Assembly: GCA_035288225.1 (NCBI GenBank)
Contig: DATEAT010000052.1
Coordinates: forward strand, 1,560-65,559
Length of the DNA stretch: 64,000 bases
Origin: Anaerolineales bacterium
GTDB taxonomy: Bacteria; Chloroflexota; Anaerolineae; Anaerolineales; RBG-16-64-43
Reading direction: 5' to 3'
Shown: positions 3,510 to 22,399 of the stretch, piece after piece
Numbering within the stretch: the stretch's first letter is position 1
Layout of the letters: every line of letters begins with the position of its first letter
The notes under the pieces: model-generated
Database searches by the model: none
What the model saw: the letters and a program-made list of their open reading frames with translations, nothing else
What the model was told of the DNA's origin: nothing
Program-made: the position numbers and the translations under genes

Positions 3510-6500
3510 CTAGGGTCTCGGGCGCCATTCAAGGCGGCCCTGAAAGTCGAGCAAGCAGACCCGGGTCTGCACCGTGCCGCCGAGCTGGCGTTCCACAGCC
3601 TCGCGGTAGCGTGCAAGCTGGGGCAGGAAATCCGTTTGCATAAGGCGCTCGAGTTCGGATTCAGTCTCGATGCGAGTCGTCTTGAAGTCAACGACCTGCC
3701 AGGCCTGGGGTCCATCCTCGACCAGCATGTCGATGTAGCCGCTCGAGACGCCCTCGCCCTTGGAAACGCTGAAGGGCACCTCATGGTAGCGCCGCGCGCG
3801 CTCGAACGCGGCCCAGTGCGGGTCGCCACGCAGCCGCTCGAGCAGCCGCTCGACGTGCGCGATGTGCTGCCCGGCTTCGGCCTCGTCGAGCACGCCCGCT
3901 TCGCGAACCGCCGCGCCCAGCATCGCCCCAAGGCGCACGTCGCCCTGGAAGCACCCGCGGCGTATGGCCAGGTGCACCAGGTTGCCCACCAGCCTCGCGC
4001 CCTCGCGCGCGTGCGCTGCGAAGATATCCTGCCGCCGTTTGCGGGCGGCCTCCAGGAAGGGCAGTTTGTCGTCGCTGATCTCGAACTCGTGCTCGGGCAC
4101 AACCTGGTAGAGAGGCGTGAGGGCTGCCTCCTCACGCGGCAACGGGTGCACGGAGGCAGGTTGGCGCACCGGCGAGGGGAGGTCGCGCACCGTGCGCAGC
4201 GCAATCAGGCCGCCGGTGTCCGGGAGTCTGAGTACCGGTTCGGTCGCAGCGCCCGCCTCGGAGGCGCTCTCCTCCGGCAGCGCCTCAACGAGCTGCGAGA
4301 ACCACGAGCTGCCGCGCTGCCCGCCTCGGTAGCCGATGACGATCAGCCGCTCCTGGGCGCGCGTAGCGCCGACGTAGAGCAGGCGCTGCTCCTCCGCCTG
4401 CTCCTCCTCGCGTTCCATAGCCTTGGCCAGCCGGTACGACACGGGTTCTTCGTCGGTACGCCGCCCCGGCCGGGCCACAACGCCCAGTTCGCGCGAAAGA
4501 ATGATGCGCGCGTAGTCGTTGGGCGCCTGGCGCGAGGCGTCTGCCAGCACAACGACCGGGAACTCGAGCCCCTTCGCCTTGTGCACGGTCATCAGACGCA
4601 CGGCGCCCTGAGCCTCGCTGGGCGCCTCGCCCTCGCGCGCGCCCGCGGCCTTCAGGGTTTCGATGTAGTCGAGGAAATCCTCGACGCGGGCGATGCCGCT
4701 GGCGTGCGCGTCCTGCAGCAGCTTATCGACGTTGCGCTGCAGGCGCTCGCCGGAGGGCGCCGCGCGCAATGCCGCGCCGAGGCGAGTACTGTCGAGCAAA
4801 TCCTTGAGCAGCTCTGCCACCGAGATGCGGTTGGCCCTCGGCGCAAGCCGATCGAGCGCGGCCCGCGCGCGCTCGGCGCGCGGCCGATCGGTCTCCCCGA
4901 GCGCACTCAGATCGCCCCGCAGCGCGTGCTTGAAGCTCACCGGCTCGCCCTCGGCAATGGGGCGGCGCAACTGGTAGAGGGCGGCGTCGCTCAGGCCGAA
5001 TGCCGGCGAGCGCAACAGCCCGGCCATCGCCAGGTCGTCCCACGGGTTGGCCACCGCCCGCAGCAAGTTGAGCAGGTCGCGGATCTCCGGGCGGTCGTAA
5101 AAGCCTCGCCCGGCGACGGTGACGAAGGGGATGCCGGCATCTTCCAGCGCGCGTTCGAAATCGGGGAAGGAGGTCGAAGCGCGGAAGAGCAGCGCCATGT
5201 CGTCCCACGGCACGCCGGCCCGGGCCAGTTCGCTGAGCCGATGCGCCAGCACCGCGGCTGCCAACCGGCGCGATGCCTCCGCCTCGCCTCCCTCCGCGAA
5301 GATCATTTCGACGAACGGGGGACGCGTCTCGGCGCGGGGTTCAGAGCGCCTGGCCTCCAATCGTTCGTACGGAACCTGGTAGGGACGGCGAGGCAAGGCT
5401 GAACTCATGGCCGGCGCCAGCAGCCCGTTGAGCACGTCCACCAGCCCGGCGTGAGCGCGAAACGTTTCGGCAAGGTGCAACACCTCGCCGCCGGCCTTCG
5501 CGGCTGCCTGTTCGACTTCGACAAAGACCGTCACATCCGCGCCGCGGAAGCGATAGATGGACTGCTTAGCATCGCCAACGACGAACAGCCCGCCGTGCTC
5601 CTCGTCGCGCGAGCCGGAGAGCGCCTCGACGATGCGGCGCTGCCGCGCGTTCGTATCTTGGAATTCATCCACCAGTACGGCACGGATCTCGCCGCGCCAG
5701 CGCCGGCGCACGTCGTCGCGGTCGAGCAGGCGGGCGGCCCCATCTTCCAGGTCATCGAAGTCGAGCGCGTGTTTCTGCTCCCTGGCGCGCCTGTAGAACT
5801 CGGCCGCCTTGGCGAAGAGCGCACGCAGTCCTGGGACGAGCGCGCGAAGCGAGCCCTCTGCATTTTCCAGCGCCTGGACGTCCTTGACCCGACCCAGCCA
5901 GCGCTCCACCTGCGCCTCGTAGCGATCGCGAATCAGGCGCACAAGAGGCTTCGCCTGGCCGGCCTTCCTTCCGACCGTGAGATTGAGGCATTCCTCGCGG
6001 ATGCGCGCCAGGTGCCCCACGGCCTCCGTCAGGCTCGAGCGCGCGAGCGCCTCACCCATGGCATGCCATTCAGCGAGCAACAGCTGCACCTGCTCGTTCA
6101 GCTTCGGGCCAGCGTCGGCCTCCAGCCTGCCCTCTGTCTCCAGCTCCTCCAGCCGCCTGATCGCGTCGACAGCCTCTGAGCCCTCTGCGAATTCGCGCAC
6201 TCTTGCATTCAATGCATCGTCCCAGCGAGCAACGAGGTTTACTCCGTCGAACGCTTCGGCCGACTCGAGCCGAAACCCGATCAGTTTGGCCAGCCCGGCG
6301 CGCAGCTGCATGGGTGTGAATGCGCGCAACACGGGCACGAGATCGGCTTCACCCGAGGCCCAGGTCAGCGCATCCTCCACGGCCTGCGACTTCCAGGCCG
6401 CGGCCAGGCCCTCTTCGAGCACCTCGAATCCCGGGTCGACTGCGGCTTCCACCGGATGGGCGCGGATAATCTCGGCGCACAAGCTGTGAATGGTGCCGAT

Positions 6501-6821
6501 GCGGGCGGTGTCGATATCCGCCTCGATCGCCGCCCAGCGCGCGCGCTCCGTGCCCGAGCGTGCATCGCGCACCCATGCGTTCACGCGAGTGCGGATGCGA
6601 TTGCGCATCTCGCGCGCGGCCTTCTCGGTGAAGGTCACAGCCACGACGGATCGTGGCGCGAGGCCCTCCTCGAGCAGCGAGAGGTAGCGCGCGGTGAGCG
6701 TGCGCGTCTTGCCCGAGCCGGCGCCGGCAATGAGCACCACATCGCGGCCGCGCGCCTCGAGCGCGCTGCGCTGCACGGGTGTCAGGTCGAACGTCTCGAG
6801 AATGGATGCGCGCTTCAGCAT
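3510..6821 (-). CDS. addA: ATP-dependent helicase/nuclease subunit A (UvrD/Rep-type helicase with C-terminal PD-(D/E)XK nuclease)
   Basis: Walker A is IAGAGSGKT near the N-terminus, and UvrD-like motifs (TFTEKAA, VDEFQDT) are present. The C-terminal IDMLVED...VVDFKT is nuclease-like. The likely start MLKRASILETF at 6821 lies 4 nt after the addB stop. Confidence 0.85.
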   Translation of the reverse strand: MLKRASILETFDLTPVQRSALEARGRDVVLIAGAGSGKTRTLTARYLSLLEEGLAPRSVVAVTFTEKAAREMRNRIRTRVNAWVRDARSGTERARWAAIEADIDTARIGTIHSLCAEIIRAHPVEAAVDPGFEVLEEGLAAAWKSQAVEDALTWASGEADLVPVLRAFTPMQLRAGLAKLIGFRLESAEAFDGVNLVARWDDALNARVREFAEGSEAVDAIRRLEELETEGRLEADAGPKLNEQVQLLLAEWHAMGEALARSSLTEAVGHLARIREECLNLTVGRKAGQAKPLVRLIRDRYEAQVERWLGRVKDVQALENAEGSLRALVPGLRALFAKAAEFYRRAREQKHALDFDDLEDGAARLLDRDDVRRRWRGEIRAVLVDEFQDTNARQRRIVEALSGSRDEEHGGLFVVGDAKQSIYRFRGADVTVFVEVEQAAAKAGGEVLHLAETFRAHAGLVDVLNGLLAPAMSSALPRRPYQVPYERLEARRSEPRAETRPPFVEMIFAEGGEAEASRRLAAAVLAHRLSELARAGVPWDDMALLFRASTSFPDFERALEDAGIPFVTVAGRGFYDRPEIRDLLNLLRAVANPWDDLAMAGLLRSPAFGLSDAALYQLRRPIAEGEPVSFKHALRGDLSALGETDRPRAERARAALDRLAPRANRISVAELLKDLLDSTRLGAALRAAPSGERLQRNVDKLLQDAHASGIARVEDFLDYIETLKAAGAREGEAPSEAQGAVRLMTVHKAKGLEFPVVVLADASRQAPNDYARIILSRELGVVARPGRRTDEEPVSYRLAKAMEREEEQAEEQRLLYVGATRAQERLIVIGYRGGQRGSSWFSQLVEALPEESASEAGAATEPVLRLPDTGGLIALRTVRDLPSPVRQPASVHPLPREEAALTPLYQVVPEHEFEISDDKLPFLEAARKRRQDIFAAHAREGARLVGNLVHLAIRRGCFQGDVRLGAMLGAAVREAGVLDEAEAGQHIAHVERLLERLRGDPHWAAFERARRYHEVPFSVSKGEGVSSGYIDMLVEDGPQAWQVVDFKTTRIETESELERLMQTDFLPQLARYREAVERQLGGTVQTRVCLLDFQGRLEWRPRP

Positions 6822-6825
6822 GCGC

Positions 6826-9800
6826 TCACGCGGGCTGATAGCGCCAGCAGAACAGGCGCGCCGGGCAGTACGCCGGACACCCGCCCTCGGGCGGCCTCGG
6901 GCGGAAGTCGCCCTCGCGAATGCCGGCAACGTAATTCCCGATGTAATCGCGGACCAGGTCCGCCGCGCCGTTCACGCCGGCGTAGTGCTTGCCCGCCTCC
7001 GAAACGTAGTTGAGTGCCTCCAACTTGAGCGCGCTGGGTCCGGCCTGGCGTATCTTCCAATAAACGCCCTCGGTCAGCCGGCCCAGCTTCAGCATGCCTT
7101 CGGCCGCAAGCCCGTAAACCGTGATCTGCAGCCGGCGCCCCTCTTCAAGATCGCGCATCTCGAGCCGGCTCGACCCGGTCTTGTAGTCGATCACTCGCAG
7201 CTGGCCCAGCGCGTCCACGTCCACACGGTCGATGACCCCGTGCAACAGAATTTCGCCGGCCTCGGTCTCCAGCCGCAGCGGGTCGCCCTCCATCCCGAAC
7301 TGCGCCTCGAGCCGCGCCGGGCGATATCCGGTCGAGTATGCATGCAACGCATGCAGCGTCTGGCGCAGGTCGTCGAGCAGGCCGGCCCGTTCGGCTTCCC
7401 ATAATGGGGAGCGGCGAAAACCAAGCCGCCGCGGCGCGTCGGCGAAAACTCGTTCGGCCACAGGCTCAAGTGACTCGAGGAGCAGCTCAAGGTTGGAAAC
7501 GTCCATAGCGCTTGCATAAACTTGCTCGAGGATCTCGTGCAGCATCGTCCCCAACTGCGCCGGATCGAATCCTATTTCGGGGTCGGCCAGTTCTTCGAGC
7601 GCGAGCGCCTTCTGGATAAAGAAGTGGAATTTGCAGCCGGCGTAGGTCTCGAGCCGGCCAGGGCTGAAGACGTGCCGCGGGCCGTAGGCCTTGCCCAGCA
7701 CCGGCGCGAGGTCCGCCGTTTGCCCATCGAACTCGCCCTGCGCCTCGCGCGCCAGGCGCGCCTGAAGTATGCGGCGGGCATGTTGTGCTTCGCGCCACTC
7801 GCTGCCGAGTTCCGCGTACTCTTCGGGCAGGTCGCCGCGCAGTAGCGCCTGCGCCAGGAGTTCGGAGCGCGAGGCGGCCTCGGAGAGCGGGAGGCGGCCC
7901 TCGCTGCGCACGCGATGCGGCACGACGCGCACCACCTCGCGCAGCGCGTGCCAGTAGGGCGAGGGCTCCCAGGCCTCGCCTTCCGGCGAGAGGTATGGCC
8001 GCGTGAGTAGCAAGAAGCGCTCGGCGCGCGTGACGGCCTCGTAGAAGACGGTTTGCTGATCGCTGCGCAGGCGCGGCTCGAGCCGCAGGCCGCGCTCGAT
8101 CAACTGCCCACGGTCGCTGTCGGTGAGGAACGGGTCCTCACTCAGCCGCCTGGGGAAGATGCCTTCCGCCACGCCGAGCAGGGCCACGGCCGGGAAGGGC
8201 ACGCCGCGCGCCTGGGTCAGGTCCGCCACGTAGATGCGCGAACCGCGCCAAGCCTCATCGCCCTCGGGCTGGTAGGTGGCAGCACCCACCGCCTCGCGCA
8301 ACTCGTCGATGAATTCGCGATAGGCCACACGCGGCGGGTTGGGCAGCGCCTTTTCGCTGAGCACGAGCGCGTCGAGCACCTGCCGCAGCGCCTCCAGCGC
8401 CGCCAGGTCCCGCTCCGAATTCTCGGGCACGGCGCGCACTTGGCGCTCGACGGCAAATCCTTCGGCGTCGTCGAGCCGCTCGAGCGCCCAGCGTGCATGC
8501 TCGGCGAGCGCCGCCTCCGGCGCGGGGCGAAGGCGCTCGGCCAGCCGTTCGAGCGCCGCGGCCAGGCGCCGCACTTGCCCGCCGGATGGGGCGCGCAGCG
8601 GCGTATCTTCGTCATCCGCGGCTGGAGGCGGCGCGGCATCCGCGAGCAATGCCAGCCCCTCCCGCCACTGGTCGAGACCGCGTATGACCTGTGCCGCGCG
8701 GGCGGCTTCCTCGAGCGGCCAGGCGTCGTCGCGCGCCAATCCGCAACTGCCCAGATCGAAGTACGGGCTGGAGACGACGTTCAGCAGCAACCGCCGCGGC
8801 CATTCGAGCAACGGTAGTTGCAGAAGGTTCAGGATCGAGGCGATGGCCGGGTTGTGTTCGAGCACGTCGCCCTGCACGAAGCGCACCGGCAGGTCGAACT
8901 CGCGCGCGGCCTCGCGCAGGTATGCCTGGTACGGGCGCAGGTCGGGCGCGATGATCGCGCATTCGAAGGGCTTAAGATCATCGCGCTGGAGGCGTGCCTT
9001 GATCCAGCGCAGCGCCTCGCGCGCCTCCAGCGCTTGGGTTTGCGCCTCGAGTAGCGTGACCTCCGCCCCGCCATCGACTTGCGGCGCCTCCGCCGAAAAG
9101 AGGTAACGCTCAAGATGCCCAAGCGCCTTCGGCCGTTGGCCGCCCGGCGTGAGCGTCGCGGGCGAGAGATGCAGGCGTTCGGTGAGGGTGCGGTGTGTGC
9201 GCTCGAACCGCCGGTAGGCGGCGCGACTCATATCCGGCTCGCCGCACAGCGTGATGACCAGCACGCCTACCTGCTGGCCGAGCGCGGTGAGCGCCTCGAG
9301 TTGCAGCGGGCTGAAGGAATCGAACCCGTCCACGATCAGGAGGTCAACAGAACGCAGGAGGCCGGCCTGCCGCTGGAGCGCGCGCACCGCCAGCCAGCCG
9401 GCTCCCTCGCGATCAACCCAGCTCAGGGCCTGCAACCGCTCCTGGTAGACGCGGTAGATGTCGGCCATCTCCTTCAGTCGCGGCGCGGCGTGCCCGAGCG
9501 CCGCCTGAAGCTGCTCGGGGGTCAGCATCGCCCGCTTGAATTCGGCGATGTGCTCGGCCATGGCGCGGATGAATCCCGGCGAGCGCCGGATGGGGGCGTA
9601 GTAGGGAAGGATGCCGTCGGCGTGCAGCGCATCGATCGCTGCGCGCACCATGCGCAGAACGACGGCCTCATCGGCGACCGGGATGAACTGGCCGGCGCGG
9701 GCGAGGATCTCATCGTACAGGCCGCTGAATCTGAGGACGGTAGCGCCGAGTGCGCCCCCGGACTGGGCCAGCCGGCGGCGCAAAGAGGTGGCGCTGGTTC

Positions 9801-20131: not shown

Positions 20132-20209
20132 TGGCGGGAGCGACGGGATTCGAACCCGCGGTCTCGGCCTTGACAGGGCCGCGTGTTAGGCCAGCTACAC
20201 CACGCCCCC
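20132..20209 (-). tRNA. tRNA-Asp (anticodon GTC), CCA encoded
   Basis: Reverse complement is GGGGGCGTGGTGTAGCTGGCCTAACACGCGGCCCTGTCAAGGCCGAGACCGCGGGTTCGAATCCCGTCGCTCCCGCCA. It has a 7-bp acceptor stem, anticodon loop CTGTCAA and T-loop GGTTCGAATCC. Confidence 0.9.
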
Positions 20210-20346: not shown

Positions 20347-21312
20347 ATGTCATCTTCTAACCCAGCCCCCGCCTACCTGCGCCTCGGGCGCAAGACGGCT
20401 CTCGCCGAGCGGGCCAAGCGCGCCCGCGCGCACCTTTCGGCGTGCGACCTATGCCCGCGCAATTGCGGCGCCGATCGCACTCGCGAAGCCGGCACATGCC
20501 GCACCGGACGCGCCGCGCGCATGCTGGCCTACATCCCCAACTTCCACGAAGAGGCGACCATCGTCGGATCGCGCGGCTCGGGCGCGATTCTCTTCGCCGG
20601 CGGCGAATTGCGCAAACCCGGCGCGCCGCTTAACGAACAGCGCCCGATGGCCTTCAGCCATGAAAGCTCAGAGCGCGAGGTAACACCCGCCGAACTGGCA
20701 GCGTGCATGCTTGAGCTGCAAACCGCTGGCTGCCACAACATCAATCTGGTCAACCCCAGCCATGTCGTGGCACAGATCCTCGAGGCCTTGGCAATCGCCG
20801 CCCGCCAAGGTCTGACTGTGCCGCTGGTATACAACTCAAACGGATACGACGCAGCGCAGGCCCTGGCCTTGCTCGAGGGGGTTGTCGACATCTACGCCCC
20901 GGAGATGCGCTTCGGTTATACACGCGAGGCGCGCCGCTTCCTCGACGTGCGCGACTACCCACTTATCAACCGCGCCGCACTGCGTGAGATGCACCGCCAG
21001 GTGGGCGATCTGGTGGTGAGCGATGACGGCTCCGCCATACGCGGGCTGCTTGTGCGCCACGTGGTGCTGCCTAACCGCCTGGCTGGCACATCCTACGTTG
21101 TCCGCTTTCTGGCGCGCCAGATATCACCCCATACGTATCTCCATCTGGTCGACGACTTCCGGCCCACGCGCAGCGCCAAGGGACTTGGCGATTTGTATCG
21201 CAAGATCACGCCGCGCGAATTAGAGAGCGCTAAGACCTTGGCCAGCGAAGCGGGCTTGCATCGGTTCGGACGCATCGCGCACATCGAGCGCGGCCCAACG
21301 ATTGCCGTGTAA
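20347..21312 (+). CDS. PflX-like radical-SAM paralog lacking the CX3CX2C cluster motif (possible non-catalytic partner or decaying duplicate)
   Basis: It aligns along its full length with the downstream gene. It keeps the N-terminal CDLCPRNC...GTC motif. Where the partner has GCNLRCQFCQNH, this copy has GGELRKPGAPLN. Confidence 0.7.
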   Translation: MSSSNPAPAYLRLGRKTALAERAKRARAHLSACDLCPRNCGADRTREAGTCRTGRAARMLAYIPNFHEEATIVGSRGSGAILFAGGELRKPGAPLNEQRPMAFSHESSEREVTPAELAACMLELQTAGCHNINLVNPSHVVAQILEALAIAARQGLTVPLVYNSNGYDAAQALALLEGVVDIYAPEMRFGYTREARRFLDVRDYPLINRAALREMHRQVGDLVVSDDGSAIRGLLVRHVVLPNRLAGTSYVVRFLARQISPHTYLHLVDDFRPTRSAKGLGDLYRKITPRELESAKTLASEAGLHRFGRIAHIERGPTIAV

Positions 21313-21337
21313 GCGGCGCACCGGGCGGCAGCCGCCC

Positions 21338-22240
21338 ATGACCAAAACCCCCGCGTATCTCACTCTGCACCGCTCTGGAGAACTGGGCGCGCGCGCCCGG
21401 GAGGCCGCCGGCCGTCTCACCTCCTGCGATCTGTGCCCGCGCCGCTGCCGGGTGGATCGCACAACGCACGCCGGCACCTGCCGCATCGGGCGCTGGGCGC
21501 GCGTCGCCTCCTTTGCGCCTCACTTCGGCGAGGAAGCCCCTCTCACCGGGCATCATGGCTCGGGCACGATTTTCTTTTCCGGCTGCAACCTGCGCTGCCA
21601 GTTCTGCCAGAACCACACCATCAGCCAGAGCCCCGATGCGCCGGAAGTCGATGCCGGCGAACTGGCCGCGATGATGCTTCACATGCAGGAGCTCGGTTGC
21701 CACAACATCAACCTGGTCTCGCCGAGCCACGTGGTGGCGCAGATACTCGAAGCGGTGCACCTGGCCGCGCACCAGGGGCTGCGCCTCCCGCTGGTCTACA
21801 ACAGTGGCGGATACGATTGCCTCGAGGCGCTGCACCTGCTCGAGGGCGTGATTGATATCTACATGCCGGATATGAAGTATTCCGACGCGCGGGTCGGGCT
21901 GGCTTACTCGCACGCCGCCGATTATCCGGCCGTCAATCGGGGCGCCGTGAAAGAGATGCATCGCCAGGTTGGGGATTTGGTGCTGGATCCCGAGGGCCTG
22001 GCCGTGCGTGGGCTGCTGGTTCGGCATCTTGTCCTACCCAACAATCTGGCGGGGACTCGTCAGATCGCACGCTTTCTCGCGCACTCGATCTCCCGCGCGA
22101 CGTATCTGAACCTGATGGACCAGTACCGCCCGGACTATCGCGCGGGCCAGCACGCCGACATCTGCCGCCCGCTGACCCAGGAAGAGTATGCGCGGGCACG
22201 GTCGGCCGCCGAAGCCGCCGGCCTCACCCGCTTCGCGTGA
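21338..22240 (+). CDS. radical SAM protein (PflX-like, COG1313-type)
   Basis: SGCNLRCQFCQN is the canonical CX3CX2C motif. The N-terminal CDLCPRRC...GTC is an auxiliary Cys motif. The likely start is MTKTPAYLTL at 21338 within track ORF 21302..22240. Confidence 0.8.
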   Translation: MTKTPAYLTLHRSGELGARAREAAGRLTSCDLCPRRCRVDRTTHAGTCRIGRWARVASFAPHFGEEAPLTGHHGSGTIFFSGCNLRCQFCQNHTISQSPDAPEVDAGELAAMMLHMQELGCHNINLVSPSHVVAQILEAVHLAAHQGLRLPLVYNSGGYDCLEALHLLEGVIDIYMPDMKYSDARVGLAYSHAADYPAVNRGAVKEMHRQVGDLVLDPEGLAVRGLLVRHLVLPNNLAGTRQIARFLAHSISRATYLNLMDQYRPDYRAGQHADICRPLTQEEYARARSAAEAAGLTRFA

Positions 22241-22270
22241 TCCCCGCACGCCGGGTGGTCATTCCACACG

Positions 22271-22301
22271 CCCACCGACACTCTCGGTGGGTCGCTCTTT
22301 G
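22271..22301 (+). terminator. possible terminator after the radical-SAM pair
   Basis: CCCACCGA-cactc-TCGGTGGG is followed by TCGCTCTTTGT, which is a weak U-tract. Confidence 0.4.
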
Positions 22302-22399
22302 TAGAGGACCCGGCGCGCGGTAGAATGCCGCGTGCCTAGCGTTCGCAATGCGCCATGTCTCGCGGCACGTAAGACCGGTGAGCGAGGGAATGAGGAACT

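Follow-up and report, generated by a model that had tools for sequence, protein, structure and literature searches.

Here we describe a tandem pair of PflX-like radical S-adenosylmethionine (SAM) paralogs encoded on a 64,000-nucleotide stretch of an Anaerolineales bacterium (contig DATEAT010000052.1, positions 1,560 to 65,559; hereafter the window), which comes from a 2.85-Mb metagenome-assembled genome (MAG) of 95% completeness (G000). The upstream gene (20347..21312, + strand; ATG start, 321 residues plus stop in the open reading frame (ORF) listing) encodes a protein, termed Up, that lacks the three cysteines of the radical-SAM cluster. The downstream gene (21338..22240, + strand; 300 residues plus stop from ATG) encodes Down, a radical SAM paralog predicted to be catalytic from its ORF and its match to PF04055. 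The best explanation, to which we assign a probability of roughly 0.7, is that Up is a functional cluster-less pseudo-radical-SAM paralog of a PflX-like enzyme. A single duplication in an ancestor shared by two genera (g1, which includes G000, and g2) of an uncultured Chloroflexota family would have given rise to Up, which would then have lost the radical-SAM cluster. As a consequence, Up is predicted to be unable to cleave SAM reductively, and may act as a binding, regulatory or scaffold protein via its retained barrel face and a putative N-terminal four-cysteine metal site.

The cluster site and fold of the two paralogs

As a preliminary description of this locus had stated, the two proteins align end to end. 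BLASTP gave 53% identity across 300 columns (E-value of 1e-104), and all of the shared segments quoted there are present, namely CDLCPR(N/R)C, GCHNINLV, PLVYNS(N/G)GYD, LLEGV(V/I)DIY and GLLVRH(V/L)VLPN. The ATG start of Down at 21338 is kept in its orthologs; an alternative TTG at 21302 would give a protein of 312 residues. Down possesses the radical-SAM cluster motif CNLRCQFC (21584..21607, + strand), in which Cys83, Cys87 and Cys90 form the CX3CX2C pattern in the alignment, within the cluster-site sequence GCNLRCQFCQNH. The corresponding sequence of Up is GGELRKPGAPLN, with GGELRKPGA at the place where CX3CX2C is expected. In an alignment of 119 sequences, the three cluster-cysteine columns are occupied in Up by Gly86, Lys90 and Ala93, exactly the three replacements first described, and no alternative cysteine lies nearby.

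The cluster-site segment of Up is five codons (15 nt) longer than that of Down, and the reading frame is intact, with neither a stop nor a frameshift. A frameshift hidden within the loop was considered and rejected: CX3CX2C is absent from both alternative frames, and the DNA alignment displays substitutions plus the 15-nt length difference. The place of the cluster loop is taken by a replacement loop, FAGGELRKPGAPLNEQR (Up residues 83-99; 20593..20643, + strand), also given as the conserved GGELRKPGAPLNEQR loop. It is followed by a linker of nine residues (100-108; 20644..20670, + strand) that varies among orthologs and is modelled as disordered, the predicted local distance difference test score (pLDDT) being below 50 for residues 99-106.

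Upstream of the cluster site, both proteins have an N-terminal CX2CX3C...C motif, composed of Cys33, Cys36, Cys40 and Cys51 in Up (20443..20499, + strand) and of Cys30, Cys33, Cys37 and Cys48 in Down (21425..21481, + strand). These four cysteines are invariant throughout the 119-sequence alignment, which comprises Cys-less as well as canonical proteins, and would bind a metal or a cluster.

The AlphaFold2 model of Up (pLDDT of 88.5, predicted template modelling score of 0.89) adopts the partial (β/α)6 TIM barrel of radical SAM enzymes, and the model of Down (pLDDT of 95.5) has the same topology. Structural similarity search using Foldseek revealed that the model of Up most closely resembles the pyruvate formate-lyase activating enzyme (PFL-AE) (PDB 3cb8), with an E-value of 2e-7 and template modelling scores of 0.53/0.68, and the top ~40 PDB matches are radical SAM enzymes only. 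By sequence, neither Up nor Down gives a match in the PDB; the family profile reaches only PFL-AE, and weakly (E-value of 0.085). Down exceeds the gathering cut-off of the Pfam family Radical_SAM (PF04055), with 31.1 bits against 29.5, and no model of Pfam or NCBIfam gives a match to Up at an E-value of 0.01 or below. The family profile can be aligned with E. coli PflA (PDB 3CB8 / 3C8F), the best structural match of Up, at the cluster loop and at the LDLK motif; however, Up and PflA share only ~12% identity, and the scores against hidden Markov models of such activases are far below the cut-offs.

Further analysis of the 128 positions with a conservation of at least 90% among canonical members of the family showed that the Down copies keep 119 of them (9 changed), compared to 81 in the Up copies (47 changed). 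Within the cluster loop, the changed positions are Cys86, Asn87, Cys90, Cys93, Gln94 and Asn95 of the canonical sequence. Beyond the loop, PHxGEE (before strand 1), YNTGGYD, YMPDMKY, Leu239 (strand 5) and NLMDQY are changed, as are Gly165, Gln270 and Asn266, and SPSH (after strand 2) is altered in g2 only. The β4 motif YMPDMKY has degenerated to YAPEMRF in g1 (20893..20913 in Up, + strand, by alignment) and to FATDMLV in g2, such that the canonical residues Met184, Asp186, Lys188 and Tyr189, all at least 96% conserved, are replaced by Ala/Glu/Arg/Phe and Ala/Asp/Leu/Val, respectively. The family profile aligns YMPDMK with VMLDLK of PFL-AE, an alignment that is weak as sequence evidence on its own and consistent with the fold match. 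Judging from their secondary-structure positions in the models, the changed motifs would sit at the C-terminal ends of the barrel strands, the usual active-site face. By contrast with these changes, the four N-terminal cysteines, the GSxGSG loop, GCHNINL, most of EMHRQVGDL and RGLLVRH.VLP are kept in all 119 sequences. Moreover, Up has a C-terminal extension relative to the canonical family.

The retained barrel and the four invariant N-terminal cysteines might suggest that Up is a non-canonical radical SAM enzyme, which cleaves SAM via a cluster on other ligands, for example these four cysteines. Indeed, radical SAM enzymes without CX3CX2C exist, such as ThiC, Dph2 and HmdB. However, the canonical enzymes have the N-terminal cysteines plus CX3CX2C, and thus the former should be an auxiliary site; in addition, four cysteine ligands would leave SAM no free iron. 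The residues aligned to Asp129/Lys131 of PFL-AE and the other strand-end motifs are changed as well, and differently in each genus, and no other conserved cysteine lies near the loop. We therefore regard a non-canonical enzyme as highly unlikely.

Single origin and purifying selection

We searched for homologs in 61 related genomes and a collection of 5.8 billion proteins. The check for orthologous pairs that the preliminary description had suggested turned out positive: tandem pairs in which the upstream copy is Cys-less and intact occur in four species of g1 (G000, G003, G004 and G005), and in G009 and G012 of g2, a second genus of the same family in which G006 carries the Cys-less copy only. 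The Cys-less orthologs of G003, G005 and G004 are 93%, 92% and 84% identical to Up, respectively. About 12 further ortholog clusters were found among metagenome proteins, with identities down to 73% (P0001-P0010, P0062, P0069, P0271 and P0272). The Cys-less ORFs, of 321-342 residues, are intact in all of the more than 15 lineages seen. As they recur in independent assemblies from JGI, NCBI, ENA and Logan, the Cys-less sequence is not a sequencing artefact.

Among the 12 lineages with enough flanking DNA, the two genes are adjacent in nine, which span both genera and have the genes on the same strand at a spacing of 25-100 nt; the same gene order is found on the contigs L116, L118, L119 and L127. 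A maximum-likelihood tree calculated with the motif columns removed places all Cys-less copies in one clade (support of 100/98), indicating that the cysteines were lost once, prior to the split of g1 and g2. Neither tandem nor Cys-less copies were found at 80 sampled canonical-family loci from many phyla.

The ratio of nonsynonymous to synonymous substitution rates (dN/dS, or ω), calculated by the Nei-Gojobori method (NG86) over the same genome pairs for both genes, is 0.10-0.21 for the Cys-less gene, the same as for its catalytic neighbor (0.10-0.24). The nonsynonymous deficit is significant in Fisher tests (p from 1e-10 to 1e-43), and the protein identities of Up and Down co-vary over 36 genome pairs. 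The loop FAGGELRKPGAPLNEQR is conserved at the protein level: across seven lineages with overall identities down to 73%, 13 of its 17 codons have synonymous differences, and only one amino acid change is seen. On this codon evidence, the replacement loop itself is under strong constraint within g1. The loop of g2 is unrelated in sequence, reading GQPLVFRSTTELPRP... followed by a variable insert.

These data bear on the proposal, also made in the preliminary description, that the upstream copy was inactivated very recently; it would then be a decaying duplicate that remains open by chance. Up has indeed lost the defining catalytic motif, matches no Pfam or NCBIfam model, and has a loop region modelled with low confidence. 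Nevertheless, the Cys-less clade predates two genera, its frame is undisrupted in every one of the lineages, ω is 0.10-0.28 when the lineages described below are included (p down to 1e-43), and the loop is kept as protein despite synonymous change. The signs by which a pseudogene or an error might have been recognized, namely neutral evolution, further disruptions or cysteines restored upon resequencing, are excluded by the dN/dS values, the intact orthologs and the independent assemblies. A pseudogene is thus the least probable explanation, and can practically be dismissed.

A conserved loop that precedes a flexible linker could alternatively be presented to another enzyme. As PFL-AE-type enzymes act on protein loops, Up might be a substrate of its twin, or a competitive mimic, that presents the Gly-rich loop GGELRKPGAP to the active site of Down. 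The strong conservation of the loop within the genus and the flexible linker after it are compatible with such a role; however, the loop is unrelated in g2, Up persists in lineages without the twin, and it has no glycyl-radical-like motif. We rate this idea as pure speculation and consider it very improbable. More generally, the loop may have no role common to both genera, as the loops of g1 and g2 are unrelated and that of the g2 contig L125 is poorly conserved.

Gene organization and lineages without the catalytic copy

The two genes are separated by a 25-nt intergenic spacer (21313..21337, + strand), in which a scan found no terminator-like site. A terminator-like hairpin lies 30 nt 3' of the downstream gene (22270..22292, + strand), with a nine-pair stem containing six G-C pairs, followed by the T-rich stretch CGCTCTTTGT; this site, identified as a consensus match only, is likely the end of a two-gene unit. 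The next gene, which encodes a PIG-L/LmbE-like deacetylase (PF02585; 22400..23248, + strand), starts 160 nt after the downstream gene. Given the 25-nt gap, the absence of a terminator between the two genes and the hairpin after the second, the pair looks bicistronic and the PIG-L gene separate. In addition, the motif GCGGTAGAATG at 22316-22327, with a -10-like TAGAAT, is kept in the otherwise diverged intergenic DNA of both genera (the window, G006, L125 and L126), and is probably the PIG-L gene's own promoter. On the other side of the pair, a tRNA-Asp(GTC) gene (20132-20209, - strand) lies 140 nt upstream on the opposite strand, and a promoter-like site (20250-20221, - strand) is directed into it.

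The PIG-L gene is the constant downstream neighbor in both genera, including the lineages that have no catalytic copy, and any functional link is conjectural; it adjoins PflX-like genes within this bacterial family only, and does not lie beside canonical members in other families. The contigs L116, L118 and L119 share the order RACo-MttB-GntR | Cys-less - radical SAM - PIG-L - acyl-CoA dehydrogenase. Synteny between the two genera is limited to the downstream side (PIG-L and acyl-CoA dehydrogenase), whereas the upstream flank differs: nuo-like NADH-dehydrogenase genes in g2 (L125 and L127), compared to a GntR-MttB corrinoid operon in g1.

In three lineages, G006, L125 and L126, the catalytic gene has been deleted, and an orphan Cys-less gene lies directly upstream of the PIG-L gene. 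L126 (86% identical) and L125 (69% identical) are metagenome contigs that belong to the sub-lineage of G006. In G006, the spacer of ~280 nt retains the start of the catalytic reading frame, which reads MRASDFTP... compared to MRAQDFVP... in G012. The remnants were located at ~6456-6752 of locus L031 (G006:C9; MRASDFTPG) and at 664-872 of L126 (MGTNDFAPG), and in G006 the remnant codons form one continuous frame with an ORF that extends into the PIG-L gene. Since G006 and L126 have a common remnant, the deletion is older than their split, which corresponds to a synonymous divergence (dS) of 0.40.

The Cys-less gene nevertheless has an ω of 0.205 between G006 and L126 (p of 1e-12), and ω of the orphan genes against L125 is 0.26-0.28. 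Tajima-type relative-rate tests gave no significant acceleration of the G006 copy (p of 0.07-0.85), and no other PflX-like gene was found in this genome, a MAG of 96% completeness. On the evidence of these substitution patterns, the Cys-less protein has a selected function without an adjacent catalytic twin, and in G006 it probably needs no such twin at all.

The preliminary description had also offered that the upstream copy is retained as a non-catalytic partner or scaffold. Its retention as a non-catalytic paralog is well borne out by conservation and purifying selection, whereas the partnership holds up only in part, with nine paired lineages on the one hand and three deletion lineages on the other. 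In its strictest form, Up would be an obligate non-catalytic subunit that forms a heteromer with its twin to activate, stabilize or target it, in the manner of the trypanosomatid AdoMetDC prozyme or of eukaryotic Dph2 towards Dph1, and would have no role of its own. The tight same-strand tandem in nine lineages of two genera, the lack of a terminator between the genes and the near-equal rates at which the two proteins evolve all agree with such a subunit, as does Down itself, which appears from its 119 retained positions to be a fully standard enzyme. However, G006, L126 and L125 have lost the catalytic gene and keep the Cys-less gene at an ω of 0.2-0.28, the deletion in G006 and L126 predates a dS of 0.40, and G006 is without another PflX-like gene. 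Moreover, PFL-AE, the closest solved fold to Up, is monomeric. As purifying selection on the Cys-less gene continues in the three deletion lineages, one of which (G006) is without a further PflX-like gene, Up is unlikely to depend obligately on its catalytic twin, though this is the alternative to be taken most seriously.

We thus favor a functional cluster-less paralog, the parts of which differ in strength. That Up is a functional non-radical protein is very probable from the comparative data. A role that is independent of the catalytic twin, or only loosely linked to it, is about as likely as not. The tight operon favors a process common to Up and Down, in which the twin would not be strictly needed.

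Several points weigh against this interpretation. The ω values of the orphan genes (0.20-0.28) are slightly above those of the paired copies (0.13-0.17), such that some relaxation after the loss of the twin is possible; as G006 is only a 96%-complete MAG, a second copy could also have been missed. The loops of g1 and g2 have no sequence relationship, and that of g2 is poorly conserved in L125. The loss of SAM binding is deduced from motif changes, and the mapping onto PFL-AE combines a fold match with a weak profile alignment. Finally, the assignment of Up and Down to the same process is a guess.

The PflX-like family and known pseudo-enzymes

Both proteins belong to the PflX-like family by homology, and Up is ~50-55% identical, over at least 93% of its length, to proteins carrying the JGI name 'putative pyruvate formate lyase activating enzyme' (JGI/KEGG labels K04070 / COG1313). 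The canonical family comprises thousands of proteins from many phyla. Up shares with it the full-length identity of ~50%, the barrel, the N-terminal CX2CX3C...C motif, GSxGSG, GCHNINL, EMHRQVGDL and RGLLVRH, but differs in the missing CX3CX2C, the 47 changed positions of 128, the loop longer by five residues, the C-terminal extension and a score below the PF04055 threshold.

An assignment of Down as a glycyl-radical activase was tested and rejected, as it scores 20 bits against a cut-off of 232 for TIGR02493 (PFLA) and 17 against 174 for TIGR02494 (PFLE_PFLC); Up matches neither model. A link to glycyl-radical enzymes was likewise rejected, since 14 of 25 related genomes having a PflX-like gene are without such an enzyme (PF01228). 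The only glycyl-radical enzyme of G000 has a dedicated ferredoxin-type activase, encoded two genes downstream. This enzyme, of 811 residues with PFL-like and Gly_radical domains, is accompanied by a C69-peptidase-like gene, the ferredoxin-type radical SAM activase, a PNPOx-like gene and ABC transporter genes (locus L120, G000:C39:24000-35651; 4368-6803 and 8168-9088). The AmmeMemoRadiSam enzyme (TIGR04337) was rejected as well: Down reaches 33 bits over its N-terminal part only, compared to a cut-off of 220, and Up gives no match. The label 'putative pyruvate formate lyase activating enzyme' is therefore nominal only; it is wrong for Up and Down, which serves as a warning for annotation.

The earlier remark that the family has no known substrate still holds. 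We found no relevant literature on the PflX/COG1313 family or on CX3CX2C-less non-catalytic radical SAM paralogs, no structure by sequence, and no conserved neighbor of the canonical family, no neighbor family being present at more than 7 of 80 loci from many phyla.

Among the 150 best representatives of the family at 50% identity, a few full-length members lack CX3CX2C, and no fewer than four changes are required on the tree. The motif is missing from P0124, P0177, P0184 and P0208, P0142 has two cysteines left and P0147 has CX3CX2R (loci L121-L124); in most of these sporadic forms, the Lys of YMPDMK is missing as well. All of them occur as singletons, on short metagenome contigs with no adjacent paralog, and P0124, found in two samples, has no close Cys-less relatives. 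The tree thus gives a weak hint of a recurrent origin of cluster-less forms across the family. As the other motif-less forms are singletons, conservation is shown for the clade studied here only.

Within NCBIfam, Up is most comparable to the pseudo-rSAM proteins (TIGR04150, pseudo_rSAM_GG), which are also full-length conserved homologs without cluster cysteines encoded beside an active paralog. There are differences between them, however: Up belongs to a PFL-AE-like branch, lacks both SPASM and RRE domains as well as a nearby precursor peptide, keeps the N-terminal four cysteines, and in some lineages has persisted after the loss of its active twin. A scan with the NCBIfam models gave no TIGR04150 match for Up, Down or the whole genome. 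By its sequence and gene context, then, Up is a pseudo-radical-SAM protein of a recognized kind, namely a cluster-less homolog beside an active twin. It also resembles the prozymes, such as the trypanosomatid AdoMetDC prozyme and the eukaryotic Dph1-Dph2, catalytically dead duplicates that are kept with the active copy and have been shown to form heteromers. Up is likewise a dead duplicate kept by selection, but the orphan lineages weigh against an obligate partnership.

The cluster-binding cysteines define radical SAM enzymes, and a full-length relative that is selected without them must use the same fold for something else. For peptide-modifying SPASM enzymes, pseudo-rSAM proteins are known; for the PFL-activase-like PflX branch, they are not. 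The present clade provides a clean case, with one origin, two genera, measured selection and a natural deletion of the active twin, and the deletion lineages show that the dead copy is more than an adjunct to its live twin. As a tentative and rather doubtful extension, the PflX-like scaffold might have a second, non-radical job via the N-terminal four cysteines and the barrel face, for which the Cys-less clade would have specialized and which would remain useful after deletion of the twin; P0124, P0177, P0184 and P0208 might then represent independent moves in the same direction. Any ligand or partner of Up would point directly to the function of the PflX-like family as a whole, and if there is such a second job, work on the Cys-less protein could show what the members of this large radical-SAM family bind.

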